Virus record (IMG/VR): IMGVR_UViG_2671180637_000024
Location: 1 to 26,029 of that record
Length of the DNA: 26,029 nt
From: a virus
Taxonomy: Duplodnaviria; Heunggongvirae; Uroviricota; Caudoviricetes
Strand: one strand, 5' to 3'
This document shows positions 3,159 through 19,047 of the stretch, one piece after another. Position 1 is the stretch's first letter. Every line of letters starts with the position of its first letter. The position numbers and the translations under genes were made by a program. The notes under the pieces were generated by a model. The model had not been told where the DNA came from. It saw only the letters and a program-made list of their open reading frames with translations, and did not search any database.

Positions 3159-4624
3159 TGGCACGAAACAAACAAGCCCTGCGGCGAACTGCGCAGGCCA
3201 CAGCTGATGGTTATGAGAATTTTATTGCCCGCGTAGGGATACAGACGCCTAACCAGCACTCAGCATCGACCTACCGGGCTAACTTCACCAGCCGCAACCG
3301 CATGCTGGTGGAATGGTCCTATCGTTCGTCCTGGATCATCGGCGAAGCGGTCGACGCTATCCCGGACGATATGACCCGGAAAGGCATTCGCATCACTTCG
3401 GAGATTGACGCCAAAGACCGTGGCACCCTGGAAGCGCAGCTGGATGAGTTGCAGATCTGGGATGCGCTGAACGACGTGCTGAAATGGTCGCGCCTCTACG
3501 GCGGCGCGGTCGGCTTCATCATGATCGAGGGGCAGGCACCAATGACCCCGCTGCGGCTCGAAACCATTGGAGAAGGCAAGTTTAAGGGCATTCTCCCGCT
3601 CGACCGCTGGATGATTAACCCAGTCCTGACCCGCCGCATTAAAGAGATGGGGCCGGATCTCGGCAAACCTGAGTTTTACGACGTGGTGACCACTGCCACG
3701 GGCATTCCAGCCTGGCGCATCCATCACAGCCGCCTGATTCGCTTCGACGGGGTGACGCTGCCATTCCAGCAGAAGATGACCGAGAACGAATGGGGAATGT
3801 CGGTTGTAGAGCGTATCTGGGATCGTCTTACCGCGTTCGACAGCGCTACTGTCGGCGCGGCGCAGCTGGTCTACAAAGCGCATTTGCGTACCTACAGCGT
3901 GGAGAAGCTACGCGAGCTTATCGCACTTGGTGGTCCTGCGTATGAAGCGCTGCTGAAGAACATCGACCTGATCCGCCAGTTCCAGAGCAATGAAGGCATG
4001 ACGCTCATGGACTCGCGGGATAAGTTCGAAACCCACCAGTACAGCTTCAGCGGTCTGGATGACATTCTTTCGCAGTTCGCTGAGCAGATCAGCGGTGCCG
4101 TTGGTATCCCACTGGTGCGGTTGTTCGGACAGTCCCCGAAGGGATTTTCTACCGGCGATGCAGACCTTGCCAACTATTACGACCGGGTAAGCTCGTTGCA
4201 GGAGAGGCGTTTACGTCTTCCGGTGCGGCGGATACTGGACATCATGCATCGTTCGGAGCTTGGCAAGCCGCTGCCGGACGATTTCACGTTTGAGTTTAAC
4301 CCGCTCTGGCAAATGTCTGATGTCGATCGCTCAACGGTGGCGTTAAACACTACCAACGCAATCAGTACAGCGCTGGGTGATGGTCTGATGACACTGAAAG
4401 CCGCTATGACTGATTTGCGCGAAAATTCTGACGTAACCGGCATCGGGGCGTCCATTACCGACGAGGACATAGAGAATGCCGAAGACGAAGCGCCGCCAGG
4501 CATCAGCGAACTTGGCGACAAACCGCCAGAGTCGCCAGGCGGAGATCCGATATCGAACGAGCCTACGGCAGATAGCGCGGGCGGTCGGGGATATCGTAAA
4601 TGGTCGCTACGATGGTTCAAATGA
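3158..4624 (+). CDS. portal protein
   Basis: 488-aa product following large terminase with ATGA start/stop overlap; acidic low-complexity C-terminal tail; standard position for portal. Confidence 0.75.
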   Translation: MARNKQALRRTAQATADGYENFIARVGIQTPNQHSASTYRANFTSRNRMLVEWSYRSSWIIGEAVDAIPDDMTRKGIRITSEIDAKDRGTLEAQLDELQIWDALNDVLKWSRLYGGAVGFIMIEGQAPMTPLRLETIGEGKFKGILPLDRWMINPVLTRRIKEMGPDLGKPEFYDVVTTATGIPAWRIHHSRLIRFDGVTLPFQQKMTENEWGMSVVERIWDRLTAFDSATVGAAQLVYKAHLRTYSVEKLRELIALGGPAYEALLKNIDLIRQFQSNEGMTLMDSRDKFETHQYSFSGLDDILSQFAEQISGAVGIPLVRLFGQSPKGFSTGDADLANYYDRVSSLQERRLRLPVRRILDIMHRSELGKPLPDDFTFEFNPLWQMSDVDRSTVALNTTNAISTALGDGLMTLKAAMTDLRENSDVTGIGASITDEDIENAEDEAPPGISELGDKPPESPGGDPISNEPTADSAGGRGYRKWSLRWFK

Positions 4625-14270: not shown

Positions 14271-14857
14271 TGGATATTCTCTCTACACTTTTTCATCAGC
14301 AGAGCAGAAAAATAGGAATGATTGTTCCCAGTGTTGTTATTTCAGAGAAGCATACAGATATGCTTGAAATAACAGAGCATCCGGTAGAGGTTGGGGCCGC
14401 TGTCGCTGATCATGCCTATAAAAAACCGTCAGAAGTGGTGATGGAGGTTGGTTTCGCCGGTGGCGGCGCATTGCTGGATTTTGCCAGTAATCTGACGGCT
14501 ACCAGCCTGCTCGGCCTGAGTCCTCAGCAGACGTATCAGGAGCTACTGGATCTGCAGGAAAGCCGTATCCCCTTCGATGTGGTAACCGGTAAACGACTGT
14601 ACAGCAACATGTTGATCCGGGCGTTGGAAGTGACGACGGACAAGACAACCGAAAACGTCCTGTCCGCCGTCCTCACCCTGAGGGAGGTCATTATCTCCCG
14701 GACACAGCAGATTACCGTCGCGGATAAAACCAACATGAAGGAAGGGGCCAGCACGTCGGCGGTACAGAACAGCGGCAACAAAACCACAAAGCCTCCAGAT
14801 ACTTCACTGCTGAAAAGCATCACGGGTAACGTGGCGTCATTACTGGGGGGCGGCTAA
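14270..14857 (+). CDS. tail/baseplate assembly protein
   Basis: 195-aa ORF starting with GTG overlapping the tape measure stop (TAGTG), with GAGGGTGGG upstream; function inferred from position. Confidence 0.5.
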   Translation: MDILSTLFHQQSRKIGMIVPSVVISEKHTDMLEITEHPVEVGAAVADHAYKKPSEVVMEVGFAGGGALLDFASNLTATSLLGLSPQQTYQELLDLQESRIPFDVVTGKRLYSNMLIRALEVTTDKTTENVLSAVLTLREVIISRTQQITVADKTNMKEGASTSAVQNSGNKTTKPPDTSLLKSITGNVASLLGGG

Positions 14858-15159
14858 TGACAATTCAGGAAATTCCGCTGACAGCGGACAACCAGCAGTT
14901 CAGCATCGTCCTGGGGGGTGTCACCTGGCGGATTAGCATCATATGGCGCGATCTGTACTGGATTATGGACCTGCAGAACGACAGAGGGGAGCCGGTAATC
15001 TCCGGTATTCCTCTTGTCACTGGTGCTGACCTGCTGGCGCAGTACGCCTGTATGGGGCTTGGTTTTAAGCTGGTGGTGGTCTGTGATGACAACACACAGG
15101 ATTACCCCACAAAAACTGACCTGGGCGGTCGCAGCCATTTACTGGTATCAACGGAGTAA
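14857..15159 (+). CDS. small tail/baseplate protein
   Basis: 100-aa ORF with TAATG overlap to the upstream gene. Confidence 0.5.
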   Translation: MTIQEIPLTADNQQFSIVLGGVTWRISIIWRDLYWIMDLQNDRGEPVISGIPLVTGADLLAQYACMGLGFKLVVVCDDNTQDYPTKTDLGGRSHLLVSTE

Positions 15160-15161
15160 GC

Positions 15162-16223
15162 ATGTCACAGAACTGGATGAGACATTTCGAGCTGCAGCTT
15201 GTGGACGGGAACGGTCAGGGAATTGAGCTAAGTGATTTCAAAGTCACCTTTACGATCGACTGGTTCAACATCAGCAGCGCGTCCCGGGTAGGGACTATCA
15301 AAATTTATAACCTCTCGGCAGATACTGTGAACCGAATTACCGGGCAGGAGTTTTCGAAAGTGCGTCTGATTGCGGGTTACGACGGTATCGCGCCGGAGGG
15401 GTCGGCAAGCGACGTCGGGACAGTGCGGGAAGTTGACGCGGCGGACGTGGGCCAGAGTGATGGTCGCAACTACGGACTGATTTTCAGCGGTGAAATTCGC
15501 TACTCGGTCACAGGAAAAGACAGTCCGGTTGATTCCTACGTCCTGATTCAGGCAGCAGATACTGATCTGGCTTTTGCCACCAGTATAACCTCACAGACGC
15601 TGGCTGCCGGTTACACGGTCGCTGATGTGAACCGTGCGCTGATGAAAGACTTCGAAGCCAAAGGTGTGACCGAAGGCCTGACGCCTGAAATGCCTGCTAC
15701 TGTATTCCCCCGGGGGCGGGTACTCTTTGGCATGACGCGGCATCTAATGGATAACGTAGCCGGGCAATGTGGCGCAACATGGCAATTCGTGGACGGTCAG
15801 CGCCAGATGGTGGCGAATAACGAATATGTTCATGAAGCGATTGTGCTCAACAGCGCTACCGGGCTTATTGGCATGCCGCAGCAGACTATCGGTAACGGCG
15901 TAAACGTCCGCGCGCTTATTAATCCGAACATCCGGGTTAACGGACTTATTCTGCTGGATCAGGCTTCCGTGTATCGTACTGCCTTGTCGAACAACGATAT
16001 TGCGATGGCTGGTGGTCAGATCACCGACCAGAACACGGATGGAAATATCACGCTAAGCGGCACCACATCGCAGCCTGCCAGCATCGCAACGGATGGCGTT
16101 TATATTGTGCGCGGGATTATGTACACTGGCGACACAAGGGGCCAGGCGTGGTACATGGATATGATGTGCGAAGCGCGTGGCGCGGCGGATCTGTATACGC
16201 GATCGGCTTTGCAAAGGGGATGA
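15162..16223 (+). CDS. putative baseplate hub protein (P2 gpD / Mu gpP-like)
   Basis: 353-aa product between tape-measure-proximal genes and baseplate spike; size and position match hub proteins of P2/Mu-type tails. Confidence 0.55.
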   Translation: MSQNWMRHFELQLVDGNGQGIELSDFKVTFTIDWFNISSASRVGTIKIYNLSADTVNRITGQEFSKVRLIAGYDGIAPEGSASDVGTVREVDAADVGQSDGRNYGLIFSGEIRYSVTGKDSPVDSYVLIQAADTDLAFATSITSQTLAAGYTVADVNRALMKDFEAKGVTEGLTPEMPATVFPRGRVLFGMTRHLMDNVAGQCGATWQFVDGQRQMVANNEYVHEAIVLNSATGLIGMPQQTIGNGVNVRALINPNIRVNGLILLDQASVYRTALSNNDIAMAGGQITDQNTDGNITLSGTTSQPASIATDGVYIVRGIMYTGDTRGQAWYMDMMCEARGAADLYTRSALQRG

Positions 16224-16226
16224 GCA

Positions 16227-16568
16227 ATGAGGGGTATTATTTTTCTGTTAGCTGTCTTTTCTGCGTGCAGCGCGTGGGCGGATGGCTTCACGGTTAAATG
16301 CGGTGGCTACACTATGGTTGCAAACCAGGGCGAGTTATCGACTATCAACGGTGAAAGAGTTACCTCTCAAAAAATCACCGAACTGGGTACCAATGGTTTG
16401 AAAGTAGACATGGGGCTTATGCCTGCCAAAGACGGTAACAACTACGGCTTTGAATACATTCGTCGCCCTGGTACCGAAACGCGATTCCTGAATGTCCAGC
16501 TTCTGCAGAACAGCATGGATGCGCCGAAAATCATCGGATCTTTCCCTTGTAAAAAAGTGGCTGGGTGA
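16227..16568 (+). CDS. small exported protein (signal peptide; possible lipoprotein)
   Basis: N-terminus MRGIIFLLAVFSACSAWADG: hydrophobic core then either an AXA signal peptidase I site (AWA|D) or a lipobox-like FSAC; 113 aa; no structural-protein character. Confidence 0.55.
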   Translation: MRGIIFLLAVFSACSAWADGFTVKCGGYTMVANQGELSTINGERVTSQKITELGTNGLKVDMGLMPAKDGNNYGFEYIRRPGTETRFLNVQLLQNSMDAPKIIGSFPCKKVAG

Positions 16569-16661
16569 AGGTAACCTGAAATTCGTAACGCCTGAAAAAC
16601 AACAAAATGTGCTCTAAAAACTGTTGTTTTTTGAGACGAGCGATTACACTGCACTGACTTT

Positions 16662-16688
16662 TTGATGGTGGATTGCCATCGATATGCT
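16662..16688 (+). promoter_or_regulatory. candidate sigma70-like promoter for the accessory cassette
   Basis: TTGATG (16662-16667), 15-nt spacer, TATGCT (16683-16688), about 30 nt upstream of the cassette start codon; weak match, spacing suboptimal. Confidence 0.3.
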
Positions 16689-16717
16689 ACTTCATTAAAG
16701 CCAGGAATAACTAAAAC

Positions 16718-17449
16718 ATGAGTTTAGCGCAGCCAAAATCAGGAGAACTGTTAGATCTTCTGACTCCTTCATTAACTAAGGGTGAAAACCTTCTGAGTGA
16801 GTTTGAAATCCATCGAATCATTCGTGAAGCGAAGAAACTACCTGAACGTTATCAGGGGCTATCAATTGAAGGCTTAGCTAAGCTTGTTCTTGGTGAAATA
16901 GATGAAGGATGTTCACTCTGTGAGCGGGGGTTGAGAATAGCGCCTAACGATCCAGTTTCTTTTTGTAACTATACGATTGCGCTGCGTAACTTAGGTTTGC
17001 ATGCTCGCCAGTATGTGATGATTCAGAAAGCATCTGATTCACTTAATCCAACGATATTGGCTGAGGTTGCTACAATTTCTGCATACTGGGTTGATATCGA
17101 TTTGCTTGAAAAGGTGATGCCGATGCTAACTGCAATGGAAGTACCGCGCCCTGAAGATATGGGCAAATGGTATGACACGCTCAATTATCTGCATACCCAA
17201 AAAGATCATGCTCAGGAGCTAAAAACTATTGGGCGGCTCATGATGAACGTTGCAGAAAAGTACCGCGCTCGTCTTGCTGGCGCTCATGCTTTTTATGTAA
17301 TGTCAGAACTTGATACGCTGTTCGTTGAAGTCAAAACAGACGATCCAGTGCTTCTTTCGCAGATGAATAATGCCTTGGCTGATGAGATTATTATTGCGGG
17401 GCTTGCGGATTCAGAATGCGTCGGATGCTTTGAAGCCGGGGAACTCTAA
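16718..17449 (+). CDS. accessory cassette gene A: hypothetical helical protein (243 aa), candidate partner of the HEPN-like protein
   Basis: Clean ORF with AGGA upstream; lower GC than flanking tail genes; predicted mostly helical with a TPR-like stretch (GLRIAPNDPVSFCNYTIALRNLGLHARQ); no nucleotidyltransferase GS…DxD motif seen. Stop overlaps gene B start (TAATG). Confidence 0.6.
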   Translation: MSLAQPKSGELLDLLTPSLTKGENLLSEFEIHRIIREAKKLPERYQGLSIEGLAKLVLGEIDEGCSLCERGLRIAPNDPVSFCNYTIALRNLGLHARQYVMIQKASDSLNPTILAEVATISAYWVDIDLLEKVMPMLTAMEVPRPEDMGKWYDTLNYLHTQKDHAQELKTIGRLMMNVAEKYRARLAGAHAFYVMSELDTLFVEVKTDDPVLLSQMNNALADEIIIAGLADSECVGCFEAGEL

Positions 17450-17877
17450 TGTCGGTTGAGCATACCTGTTTTCTTGAATTGGCTAAGCATTCCCTGGCTC
17501 TAAACGGTGAGATGTGGACGAGAAATGCTATTAGCCGAGCATACTATGGTATGTACCATTCCGCCTTACGGATCACCAACAATCTGGTACCGACCGCTAC
17601 ACAAGATGGTGAAAAACTAAAAGGTGGAGTTCACATGCGAGTCTATACGGCCTTTTGTAGTGGTGAGGCAGCTGCACTTAACGATGTTGATGTTAACGCA
17701 GTAAAGAAAATCGGCGTTAAACTGAAAATGACGCATGCCCAACGTGTTAATTCTGATTACAAGCTTGAGCGGAAAATCAACCGGATTACCGCGAGAAGTG
17801 TAATTCTGGATGCGGAAGAGGTCGATGCAATCGTTAATCAATTACTGAAGATTGGTGATGACTCGTTAACTGCATAA
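17449..17877 (+). CDS. accessory cassette gene B: HEPN-like domain protein (142 aa)
   Basis: Contains SRAYYGMYHSALR (aa 29-41), GGVHMRVYTAF (aa 59-69) and RVNSDY (aa 99-104) followed by an acidic C-terminal helix; this matches my recollection of the classical HEPN consensus (SRAYYAMFHAAKALL … H … R..ADY). Assignment is from memory, not an HMM hit. Confidence 0.6.
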   Translation: MSVEHTCFLELAKHSLALNGEMWTRNAISRAYYGMYHSALRITNNLVPTATQDGEKLKGGVHMRVYTAFCSGEAAALNDVDVNAVKKIGVKLKMTHAQRVNSDYKLERKINRITARSVILDAEEVDAIVNQLLKIGDDSLTA

Positions 17878-17900
17878 GCTGAAATTTCTCAAAATTCAAA

Positions 17901-17923
17901 CCCGCCACTTGGCGGGTTTTTTG
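17901..17923 (+). terminator. rho-independent terminator downstream of the accessory cassette
   Basis: cccgcc-actt-ggcggg perfect 6-bp GC stem (17901-17916) followed by TTTTTT (17917-17922). Confidence 0.7.
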
Positions 17924-17941
17924 CTTTCTGGAGCCTACTAA

Positions 17942-18694
17942 ATGGCAGTATCTGACCAGACCCGCAGCGGCGACCTTGCCGAAACATTTAAATCCGAACA
18001 GGAAACAACAAAGAACCAGATCCGTGTCGCCTTGCCTGGCATTGTTCAGTCATTCGCTCCTGATGCGGTGACGGCGGTTGTACAGCCTGCTATCCGTTAC
18101 GTTGAAATTGATAACGACGGCAACCGCATTACCAAAAATTACCCATTGCTGGTGGATGTGCCAGTGGTATTCCCGCGTGGCGGAAGCTGTACGCTAACGT
18201 TTCCAGTTAAAGCCGGTGATGAATGTTTGGTGATTTTTGCCGATCGTTGTATTGATTTCTGGTGGCAGAGTGGCGGGATACAGGAGCCGGTCGATGACAG
18301 AATGCATGATTTATCGGATGCGTTTTGTATTGTCGGTCCCCAGTCGCAGGCAAGGAAGATTAGCGGTATTAATACCAGTGCCACACAGTTGCGTAGTGAT
18401 GACGGCAGCACCTATTTTGAGCTTAATCCTGATACCAGGAAAATTAAAATTGTCGCTCCGGGGGGCCTTGATGTGGTTGCCCCTCTGGCTGATTTTTCTG
18501 AGAAAGTAACCATTCATGGCCTGTTAACCTGGATGGGAGGCATGGTGGGGTCTGTTGTTTCTGGTGTGGCTTCAAAAATCACTGGTGCTGTTGAGTTTTT
18601 GGGTAGCGTGAAGGCTAACGGCAAGCCAATCGATGATACGCACACTCATGGTGGTGTTCAGCGCGGTGGAAGCAATACCGACGGAGTAAACTGA
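17942..18694 (+). CDS. baseplate spike / assembly protein V-like
   Basis: 250-aa product with glycine-rich C-terminus, directly upstream of W- and J-like baseplate genes (V-W-J-I order of P2/Mu-type baseplates); GGAG Shine-Dalgarno. Confidence 0.65.
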   Translation: MAVSDQTRSGDLAETFKSEQETTKNQIRVALPGIVQSFAPDAVTAVVQPAIRYVEIDNDGNRITKNYPLLVDVPVVFPRGGSCTLTFPVKAGDECLVIFADRCIDFWWQSGGIQEPVDDRMHDLSDAFCIVGPQSQARKISGINTSATQLRSDDGSTYFELNPDTRKIKIVAPGGLDVVAPLADFSEKVTIHGLLTWMGGMVGSVVSGVASKITGAVEFLGSVKANGKPIDDTHTHGGVQRGGSNTDGVN

Positions 18695-19047
18695 TGCGAT
18701 ACAGACGTGAAGACGCCGATGGCGATTACACCTTTGGCAGCGGTGATGACACCTGGCTGATTAACTCACCGGAGGCCGTGGCGCAGGCGGTAAAAACGCG
18801 ATTCGAATTGTGGTATGGGCAATGGTTTCTCGACACCACCGAGGGGACTCCGTGGATCCAGTTCGTACTCGGTAAGCAGAAGCCGGAAACCTACAACCTG
18901 GCGATCCGTAAGCGCATCCTCGAAACGCAGGGCGTTAAATCAATCCTCTCTTTCAATACGACGGTGGATACCACGACCCGACGTGTCATGTTTTCCGCTG
19001 AAATCGACACTCTTTATGGAATAACGACTGTTACATCGGAGGCGTAA
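18694..19047 (+). CDS. baseplate protein W-like (gp25 family)
   Basis: 117-aa product, ATGA overlap with the upstream gene, between V-like and J-like genes. Confidence 0.65.
   Translation: MRYRREDADGDYTFGSGDDTWLINSPEAVAQAVKTRFELWYGQWFLDTTEGTPWIQFVLGKQKPETYNLAIRKRILETQGVKSILSFNTTVDTTTRRVMFSAEIDTLYGITTVTSEA

Follow-up and report, generated by a model that had tools for sequence, protein, structure and literature searches.

Positions 16592–17925 of the window (by which we mean the whole 26,029-nt stretch of viral DNA analysed here) appear, on balance, to constitute a self-contained moron in a SEN34-like Escherichia coli prophage, with 16592–16717 serving as the promoter and 5′ leader of its two-gene cassette (genes A and B). 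The initial annotation had proposed that this cassette is transcribed independently of the surrounding late operon, and its anatomy, as far as sequence can speak to it, fits that proposal: the cassette has a lower GC content, has its own conserved upstream region, and is followed by a terminator after gene B. The features on which this reading is built are the following.

16569–16591, + strand: junction segment adjoining the stop codon of the 113-aa backbone gene; not conserved.
16592–16656, + strand: conserved promoter region, approximately −65 to −1 relative to the predicted start.
16595–16604 and 16622–16631, no strand assigned: inverted repeat with arms AAAAACAACA and TGTTGTTTTT, perfect over 10 bp, with a 17-nt loop; subtype-specific.
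16621–16626, + strand: predicted weak −35, CTGTTG, 18 nt upstream of the −10 and overlapping the right arm of the repeat.
16645–16650, + strand: predicted −10, TACACT, inside ATTACACTGC, recognized by conservation.
16657–16717, + strand: predicted 61-nt leader, its start placed near A16657, 7 nt after the −10.
16662–16667 and 16683–16688, + strand: promoter-like hexamers TTGATG and TATGCT, separated by 15 nt, noted from sequence; probably not a promoter.
16662–16669 and 16675–16682, + strand: 5′-proximal leader hairpin, recognized by pairing across relatives.
16702–16707, + strand: Shine-Dalgarno sequence CAGGAA, of which AGGAA is invariant even with the 53% members included.
16718–17449, + strand: gene A (243 aa), a TPR-like helical repeat (approximately residues 7–181) with a small alpha/beta C-terminal domain.
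17449–17877, + strand: gene B (142 aa), HEPN-fold of the UPF0332 type, its start overlapping the gene A stop.
17898–17925, + strand: intrinsic terminator AAACCCGCCACTTGGCGGGTTT plus T-run, called by terminator scan, directly before the ribosome-binding site of the spike gene.

The window is late-gene DNA (head, tail, and baseplate) from an E. coli prophage whose kin include Salmonella phage SEN34 and Escherichia phages vB_EcoM-606R2 and 683R1. Its late genes on the + strand are densely packed, with a median gap of −1 nt, and the description of a 149-bp spacer standing out among them is borne out: it runs from the TGA stop codon of the 113-aa gene (16566–16568) to the ATG of gene A (16718), and is the second-largest gap in the late-gene chain, the largest being the 156 nt before the tape-measure gene. 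The spacer has a GC content of 37.6% and the cassette one of 43%, compared with 53% upstream and 49% downstream. In relatives that carry other cargo (606R2, 683R1, SEN34, and four E. coli prophages), homology to the window ends at 16555–16568 and returns at 17895–17899. Homology thus ends where the spacer begins and resumes at the first base of the terminator, so that the whole spacer is, by this comparison, part of the variable cargo and not of the phage backbone. The flanks are common to 353 of 5426 complete E. coli genomes, the cassette to only 32–33; the spacer is present in 33 of the 5426, approximately the cassette count, and is only ever found together with genes A and B. E. coli WAT and O55:H7 DEC5E are among the strains with this prophage, and their spacers are 100% identical to that of the window.

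Several other interpretations of the spacer were considered and rejected. A small open reading frame at 16607–16657 (16 aa) is discounted as a gene by the change of its ATG to ACG in the 87–93% clade (G2), and a minus-strand frame at 16442–16654 by indels that cross it and are not multiples of three. A backbone antitermination element is not consistent with a spacer that is linked to cargo and missing from relatives having the same terminator, nor is an insertion scar or recombination site consistent with the location of the repeat, 30–60 nt inside the cargo boundary. Comparison by eye yielded no convincing match in the spacer to the consensus sites of CRP, LexA, Fis, IHF, or alternative sigma factors.

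The terminator that closes the unit is predicted to form a 9-bp stem with six G-C pairs (−15.7 kcal/mol, z = −4.7), and its first base is the right-hand boundary of the cargo. It is fused to the Shine-Dalgarno sequence and ATG of the spike gene (17898–17941) and is kept in the inspected relatives with the same backbone whatever their cargo, Yersinia phage YP3 being an exception without a backbone terminator. In at least five different phage contexts of the cassette a strong predicted terminator lies within approximately 20 nt after gene B, and every context other than that of the window has an equivalent one. With a strong terminator in the middle of a late operon, late passage to the baseplate and fibre genes might proceed by antitermination, by partial read-through, or from a downstream late promoter.

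The hub–spike position (16555–17899; seen also in L001, L003, and L053–L056) is a multi-allelic cargo slot with fixed boundaries in SEN34-like prophages, its neighbours being the 113-aa hub-associated gene of the 'STY1065/STY2022 family' and the spike gene. The cargo found there includes the TPR and HEPN pair, a YafO-family toxin pair, DUF2335 and DUF4282 proteins, an HMG-box protein, in 606R2 a 170-aa protein bearing the Rx4H motif RNNLFH, and a 257-aa gene followed by a HEPN-like open reading frame without annotation. This last arrangement occurs in E. coli F11 (L056), in which the 441 nt annotated as intergenic after the 257-aa cargo gene (1729–2169) contain the motifs SRAYYSMLHE and RDARNEADYD, which resemble motifs of gene B; the stretch appears, from these motifs, to encode a HEPN-like protein and so to provide a second, distant pairing of another gene with a HEPN gene in the slot. 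In YP3 (L002) a direct repeat of approximately 115 bp (~1320–1438 and 2245–2362) flanks a single cargo gene, which implies that the same spacer stands before the cargo gene and before the spike gene. E. coli OkiPb01713 (L005, locus 929–1599) has an unrelated 154-aa gene in place of the 113-aa backbone gene, and homology to the window begins at 16514; a 55-bp 3′ remnant of the 113-aa gene thus travels with the cassette, which is evidence for spread of the cassette by recombination in flanking sequence.

Selection on the spacer was assessed by comparison with 46 further loci encoding gene A homologues, with protein identities from 100% to 38%; the sequences are related and do not constitute independent samples. 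Between the window and the 69% clade (G3), four-fold degenerate sites in genes A and B are saturated (24–37% identity), whereas identity is 65–66% across 16592–16656 and 57–61% across 16657–16717; at 16569–16591 it is 39–43%, near neutral. Against the closer 89% relative (L008), four-fold sites are 67% identical, 16592–16717 is 90–91% identical, and 16569–16591 is 57% identical. Identity far above that of four-fold sites indicates that 16592–16717 is under purifying selection, and that the first 23 nt of the spacer are not. Taken with the cargo linkage, this comparison upholds the view in the initial annotation of a regulatory spacer belonging to the cassette.

An alignment of 16 spacers from three clades contains the following invariant blocks, all on the + strand.

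16592–16598: CTGAAAA, an A-tract block.
16603–16612: CAAAAYGTGC (CAAAA.GTGC), an A-tract block.
16621–16630: CTGTYGTTTT (CTGT.GTTTT), a T-rich block.
16643–16652: ATTACACTGC, the longest invariant block.
16657–16668: AC.TTTTGA.GG.
16673–16680: TTGCC.TC.
16702–16707: CAGGAA, the Shine-Dalgarno sequence.

When three members with 53% protein identity were added, the only long invariant blocks left were ATTACACT (16643–16650), AGGAA, and the ATG. As candidates for recurring operator motifs, ATTACACTGC, CAAAAYGTGC, and CTGTYGTTTT had no meaningful recurrence elsewhere within the window.

The argument for a promoter with TACACT as its −10 comes from this conservation and not from the score of the window sequence. 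TACACT has the critical −10 positions (T-A...T) and is invariant across type I spacers. Among 18 tabulated representative loci, 10 place it 70–73 nt ahead of the ATG, with both promoter types represented; a variant −10, TAAACT, lies at −73 in L051, and in the remaining tabulated loci a longer leader moves the −10 out to −87 to −104. In distant lineages (the 40% clade, whose cassettes occupy other phage backbones) TTGAAA or TTGAAG stands exactly 17 bp before TACACT, a combination that scores 11.5–12.2 against a 99th percentile of 11.9 for shuffles, and a standard promoter scan independently flags TTGAAA-17-TACACT in one of these loci (L049). The −10 prediction was also applied to ten previously unexamined loci, eight of which fit: six have TACACT at the expected place, and two (L050 and L051) carry a variant in the corresponding position, TATGCT or TAAACT, which keeps T1, A2, and T6 and follows TTGAAG or TTGAAA by 17 bp. 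The other two, L043 (which groups with L038) and L052, have no −10, and its absence from L038/L043 and L052 implies that an internal promoter is not indispensable.

The −35 of the window is poor, being either CTGTTG at 18 bp (two of six positions matched) or TGTTGT at 17 bp (score 1.6); a −35 resembling TTGACA, 16–18 bp upstream, was found only in type II relatives and not in the window. All G2 and G3 spacers have CTGTCG at this position (score 7.0 with TACACT), and L046 has TTGTTG. The combination CTGTTG-N18-TACACT falls outside the top four sigma-70 candidates of the window, the fourth of which scores 5.2, and below TTGATG-N15-TATGCT (7.4). Since most relatives have CTGTCG, the T/C difference at T16625 that perfects the repeat in the window subtype also weakens the −35 match. 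The predicted start, A16657, coincides with the beginning of the invariant block AC.TTTTGA.GG, and conservation from approximately −65 would fit the usual upstream limit of a promoter with a UP-like, A/T-rich element.

Two observations concern the promoters of the relatives. In L040 (~3875–3895), AAACGTGCTGTCGAC is found directly upstream of a canonical TTGAAA −35 and matches the window-type blocks CAAAAYGTGC and CTGTCG, which suggests a common origin of the two promoter types, with short indels accounting for their differences. A dyad, TTACC-N5-GGTAA, stands between −35 and −10 in type II promoters of A-B cassettes, and a DUF2335 cargo of the slot, itself unrelated, also has it in its promoter (all copies: L009, 3897–3911; L041, 3915–3929; L047, 1388–1402; L049, 1415–1429; L050, 1399–1413; L051, 1413–1427; L054, 986–1000). 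The dyad is absent from the window; it may be a portable promoter or operator module common to different morons.

We propose a sigma-70 promoter made up of the weak −35 CTGTTG, an 18-nt spacer, and the −10 TACACT, on which the A-tract-rich upstream region, from approximately −65 to −38, may act like an UP element. Transcription would start near A16657 and produce a leader of 61 nt containing the 5′ hairpin and the Shine-Dalgarno sequence; the transcript would continue through TPR-like gene A and HEPN gene B, which are translationally coupled, to end at the terminator at 17898–17925. Such a unit could be expressed at a low level from the repressed prophage without turning on the baseplate genes, and during lytic growth it would additionally be read within the late transcript; that no terminator lies between the upstream late gene and the cassette implies that read-through expression occurs as well. 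The promoter is probably weak, as judged from its −35.

Within the leader, the hairpin is paired in 95.5% of cells across relatives; five of its eight pairs have changed on one side only while still pairing, and three show compensated double changes in the 53% members. Its thermodynamic signal is weak or ordinary, and it is clade-specific rather than universal. Five loci with longer leaders (L009, L039, L040, L048, and L050) have a terminator-like hairpin followed by a run of 6–8 T residues approximately 30 nt before the ATG, which could be an attenuator or the end of a short RNA from the same promoter.

An account that dispenses with the internal promoter, in which the cassette is expressed by late-operon read-through only and the spacer acts on the mRNA (translation initiation, stability, or processing), seems unlikely, but it accommodates several observations: the lack of a terminator between the 113-aa gene and gene A, the existence of two lineages without a −10, the conservation of the leader hairpin and Shine-Dalgarno sequence, and the 606R2 cargo, which occupies the same slot with no spacer and is translationally coupled to the upstream gene. 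Against it, the consensus RNA structure of the spacer region has very little strength (−3.5 kcal/mol; covariation term −0.4), the most conserved block is −10-like, and a canonical −35 stands exactly 17 bp away in distant lineages. At least five phage contexts, moreover, contain the A-B pair, each with an upstream spacer of at least 115 nt: it occupies the hub–spike slot, separates lysis from terminase genes, follows a head-tail gene, or lies between the tape-measure gene and the genes of the tail tube, among other positions. The same upstream region accompanies it in unrelated contexts, some of them non-late, such as that between lysis and terminase genes, and a dedicated terminator after gene B makes most sense for an autonomous unit.

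The initial annotation had read the inverted repeat as an operator or RNA element. It is indeed a perfect 10-bp repeat with a 17-nt loop, but the coordinates first given for it were one base too high, and it is not AT-only, each arm having two G/C positions. When the spacer was dinucleotide-shuffled 5000 times, eight shuffles contained a perfect repeat of at least 10 bp with a loop of 3–30 nt; across all 26 kb of the window there are three, against 0.9 ± 1.1 expected, so that one somewhere in it is unremarkable. On sequence statistics alone, the repeat is suggestive. The other two perfect 10-bp repeats are at 719–728 / 745–754 and at 14335–14344 / 14365–14374, and the former (TGGCCATCAA / TTGATGGCCA) belongs to the 443 non-coding bp that precede the small terminase gene. 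A connection of the TTGATGG/CCATC hairpin with the 719–754 repeat was discarded: TTGATGG is a common heptamer, with 13 copies, mostly intragenic.

Comparison with relatives gives the repeat at 16595–16631 no standing as a conserved element. It is perfect in only three of 14 distinct spacers, all of the window's own subtype; the pair A16601–T16625 is broken in 11 of the 14 with no compensating change, the 69% clade breaks two further pairs, again uncompensated, and L044–46 have no left arm. Across relatives the proportion of paired cells, 85%, equals that in shuffles; no pair is compensatory, and three break. Folded as RNA, the repeat reaches −8.6 kcal/mol (z = −1.6); diverged copies adopt other registers. 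Rfam has no match in the spacer, its sub-threshold matches falling only on the terminator at 17898. With a dyad that is unconserved and uncompensated, and no conserved hairpin on folding, the assignment of the repeat as an operator or RNA element finds no support. A conserved RNA hairpin is rejected for want of covariation, as is an alternative 6-bp register (16604–16609 / 16625–16630), in which all sequences pair, but by A-U pairs and wobbles only and never with a double change; a palindromic toxin-antitoxin operator is disfavoured, dyad symmetry not being conserved among homologous cassettes. The repeat is, we conclude, largely incidental, mostly a by-product of A-tracts at its left arm and the T-rich −35 region at its right.

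A separate matter is whether the invariant blocks at −65 to −27 bind a dedicated regulator, which might be encoded by the cassette (the TPR-HEPN pair), by the phage, or by the host. We consider this improbable; if it were true, expression would be switched (e.g., by infection or stress) and not merely low and constitutive, and the regulator site would, in the E. coli subtype, have been tightened into the perfect repeat. It is more doubtful still that the repeat, or the blocks overlapping it, forms an operator for A/B, a phage regulator, or a host regulator in addition to the promoter. Selection on the region does exceed the needs of a −35 alone, the predicted −35 shares bases with the right arm, spacer shuffles seldom produce such a repeat, and the TTACC-N5-GGTAA dyad of type II relatives makes operator control of the cassette family plausible. 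These points are countered by the three pairs that break uncompensated, by the deletion of the left arm in L044–46, by the failure of the blocks to recur elsewhere in the window, and by a centre-to-centre spacing of 27 bp, which on geometric grounds would place the half-sites on different helix faces. Autoregulation by A or B likewise finds no support: neither gene product has a DNA-binding domain recognizable by family search or, for A, by structure model and fold search, although a DNA-binding surface of an unrecognized kind in gene A is conceivable.

The hexamer pair TTGATG-N15-TATGCT had been described as promoter-like, and its sequences and positions are exact; its reading as a promoter fares poorly, with a score at chance level and an unconserved TATGCT. 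Were it active in the window subtype, transcription would start near 16695 and the leader would be approximately 23 nt. Each hexamer matches its consensus at four of six positions, TATGCT has the critical A2 and T6, and the pair, which is the top sigma-70 candidate in the window's own spacer, is retained in G1 and in part of G2. Its score of 7.4 in a sigma-70 log-odds model, however, is that of the best candidate in a typical shuffled spacer (median best 7.2, 90th percentile 9.7), and a 15-nt promoter spacer is strongly suboptimal. The standard promoter scan, which allows spacers of 16–18 nt, called no + strand promoter in 15000–19000. TATGCT becomes TATGCA, losing the critical last T, in L008-type members of G2, becomes CTTGGA or CTTTGA in G3, and is absent in L044–46. 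TTGATG is better explained, given the pairing across relatives, as the 5′ arm of the conserved leader hairpin, and there is only a slight chance that the pair serves as the promoter.

That the repeat is instead a terminator or attenuator for the upstream late genes is extremely unlikely: as RNA it would form a hairpin followed by a U-run, but it has only two G-C pairs, a 17-nt loop, and the weak folding energy given above, is not called by the terminator scan, folds in other registers in diverged copies, and belongs to the cargo and not to the backbone.

We return to the preferred reading, that of a self-contained moron, and to the genes that it carries. Gene A matches phrog_22649 and no Pfam or NCBIfam family; its structure model has a pLDDT of 90.5, and a fold search with it returns TPR proteins only. 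Gene B has the helical-bundle fold of HEPN proteins, with invariant residues H96, R99, D103, and Y104 (H-x-x-R-V-x-[AS]-D-Y). The canonical Rx4-6H motif is not evident in gene B, there being no His 4–6 residues after R99, so that any catalytic competence is putative. Searches of the literature found no description of this cassette or slot.

The cassette can be compared with several known systems. Autoregulated type II toxin-antitoxin promoters have a palindromic operator that overlaps the promoter, and the likeness lies in a coupled two-gene cassette with a toxin-like second gene and a repeat overlapping the predicted −35; unlike those systems, the cassette has a repeat that is not conserved as a dyad, and its gene A lacks a recognizable DNA-binding fold. 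HepS of Gifsy-1 (PMC13043305) and Tha of Staphylococcus aureus prophages (PMC11087260) are likewise HEPN-fold prophage cargo for which expression in the lysogen is expected. Both are single-protein systems with demonstrated triggers and RNase activity (PMC13043305; PMC11087260), whereas the HEPN protein of gene B is paired with a TPR-like partner and does not display an evident Rx4-6H motif. No relation of the cassette to HepS or Tha was found at the sequence level (best PADLOC match, E = 0.009).

The defence hotspots of P2-like prophages and P4-like satellites (PMC9122126) resemble the slot in their fixed position and in the interchange of unrelated accessory or defence-like genes between conserved flanks; the slot differs in belonging to a SEN34-like myovirus lineage and in lying inside a baseplate block, and a defence role for its cargo is putative. 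Morons are defined by a composition unlike that of their neighbours, by a promoter and terminator of their own, and by expression from the repressed prophage (PMC3594210). The unit described here is extra DNA between conserved genes, differs in composition, and has its own predicted terminator. The morons of HK97 and HK022, such as HK97 gene 15 in the tail operon, are likewise extra units between conserved late or tail genes, with differing GC content, an upstream control region and terminator of their own, and other content in relatives (PMC3594210); in L050 the A-B unit occupies the place that gene 15 has in HK97, flanked by tail tube/chaperone genes and the tape-measure gene. In contrast to HK97 and HK022, the cassette has a promoter that is only predicted, its slot is multi-allelic with fixed boundaries, and its right-hand terminator is common to the backbone of relatives and not unique to the cargo. 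The arrangement is that of a textbook moron, of an ordinary and well-known kind.

The analysis places the cassette in a previously undescribed multi-allelic slot within the baseplate gene block of SEN34-like prophages and narrows the nucleotides to be mutated in expression tests. The biological interest lies in the function of the cassette and in the slot, and not in the inverted repeat, the control region being ordinary. On this reading the TPR and HEPN cassette would be an autonomous mobile unit with its own control region, as expected of defence or toxin-antitoxin-like cargo expressed in the lysogen.
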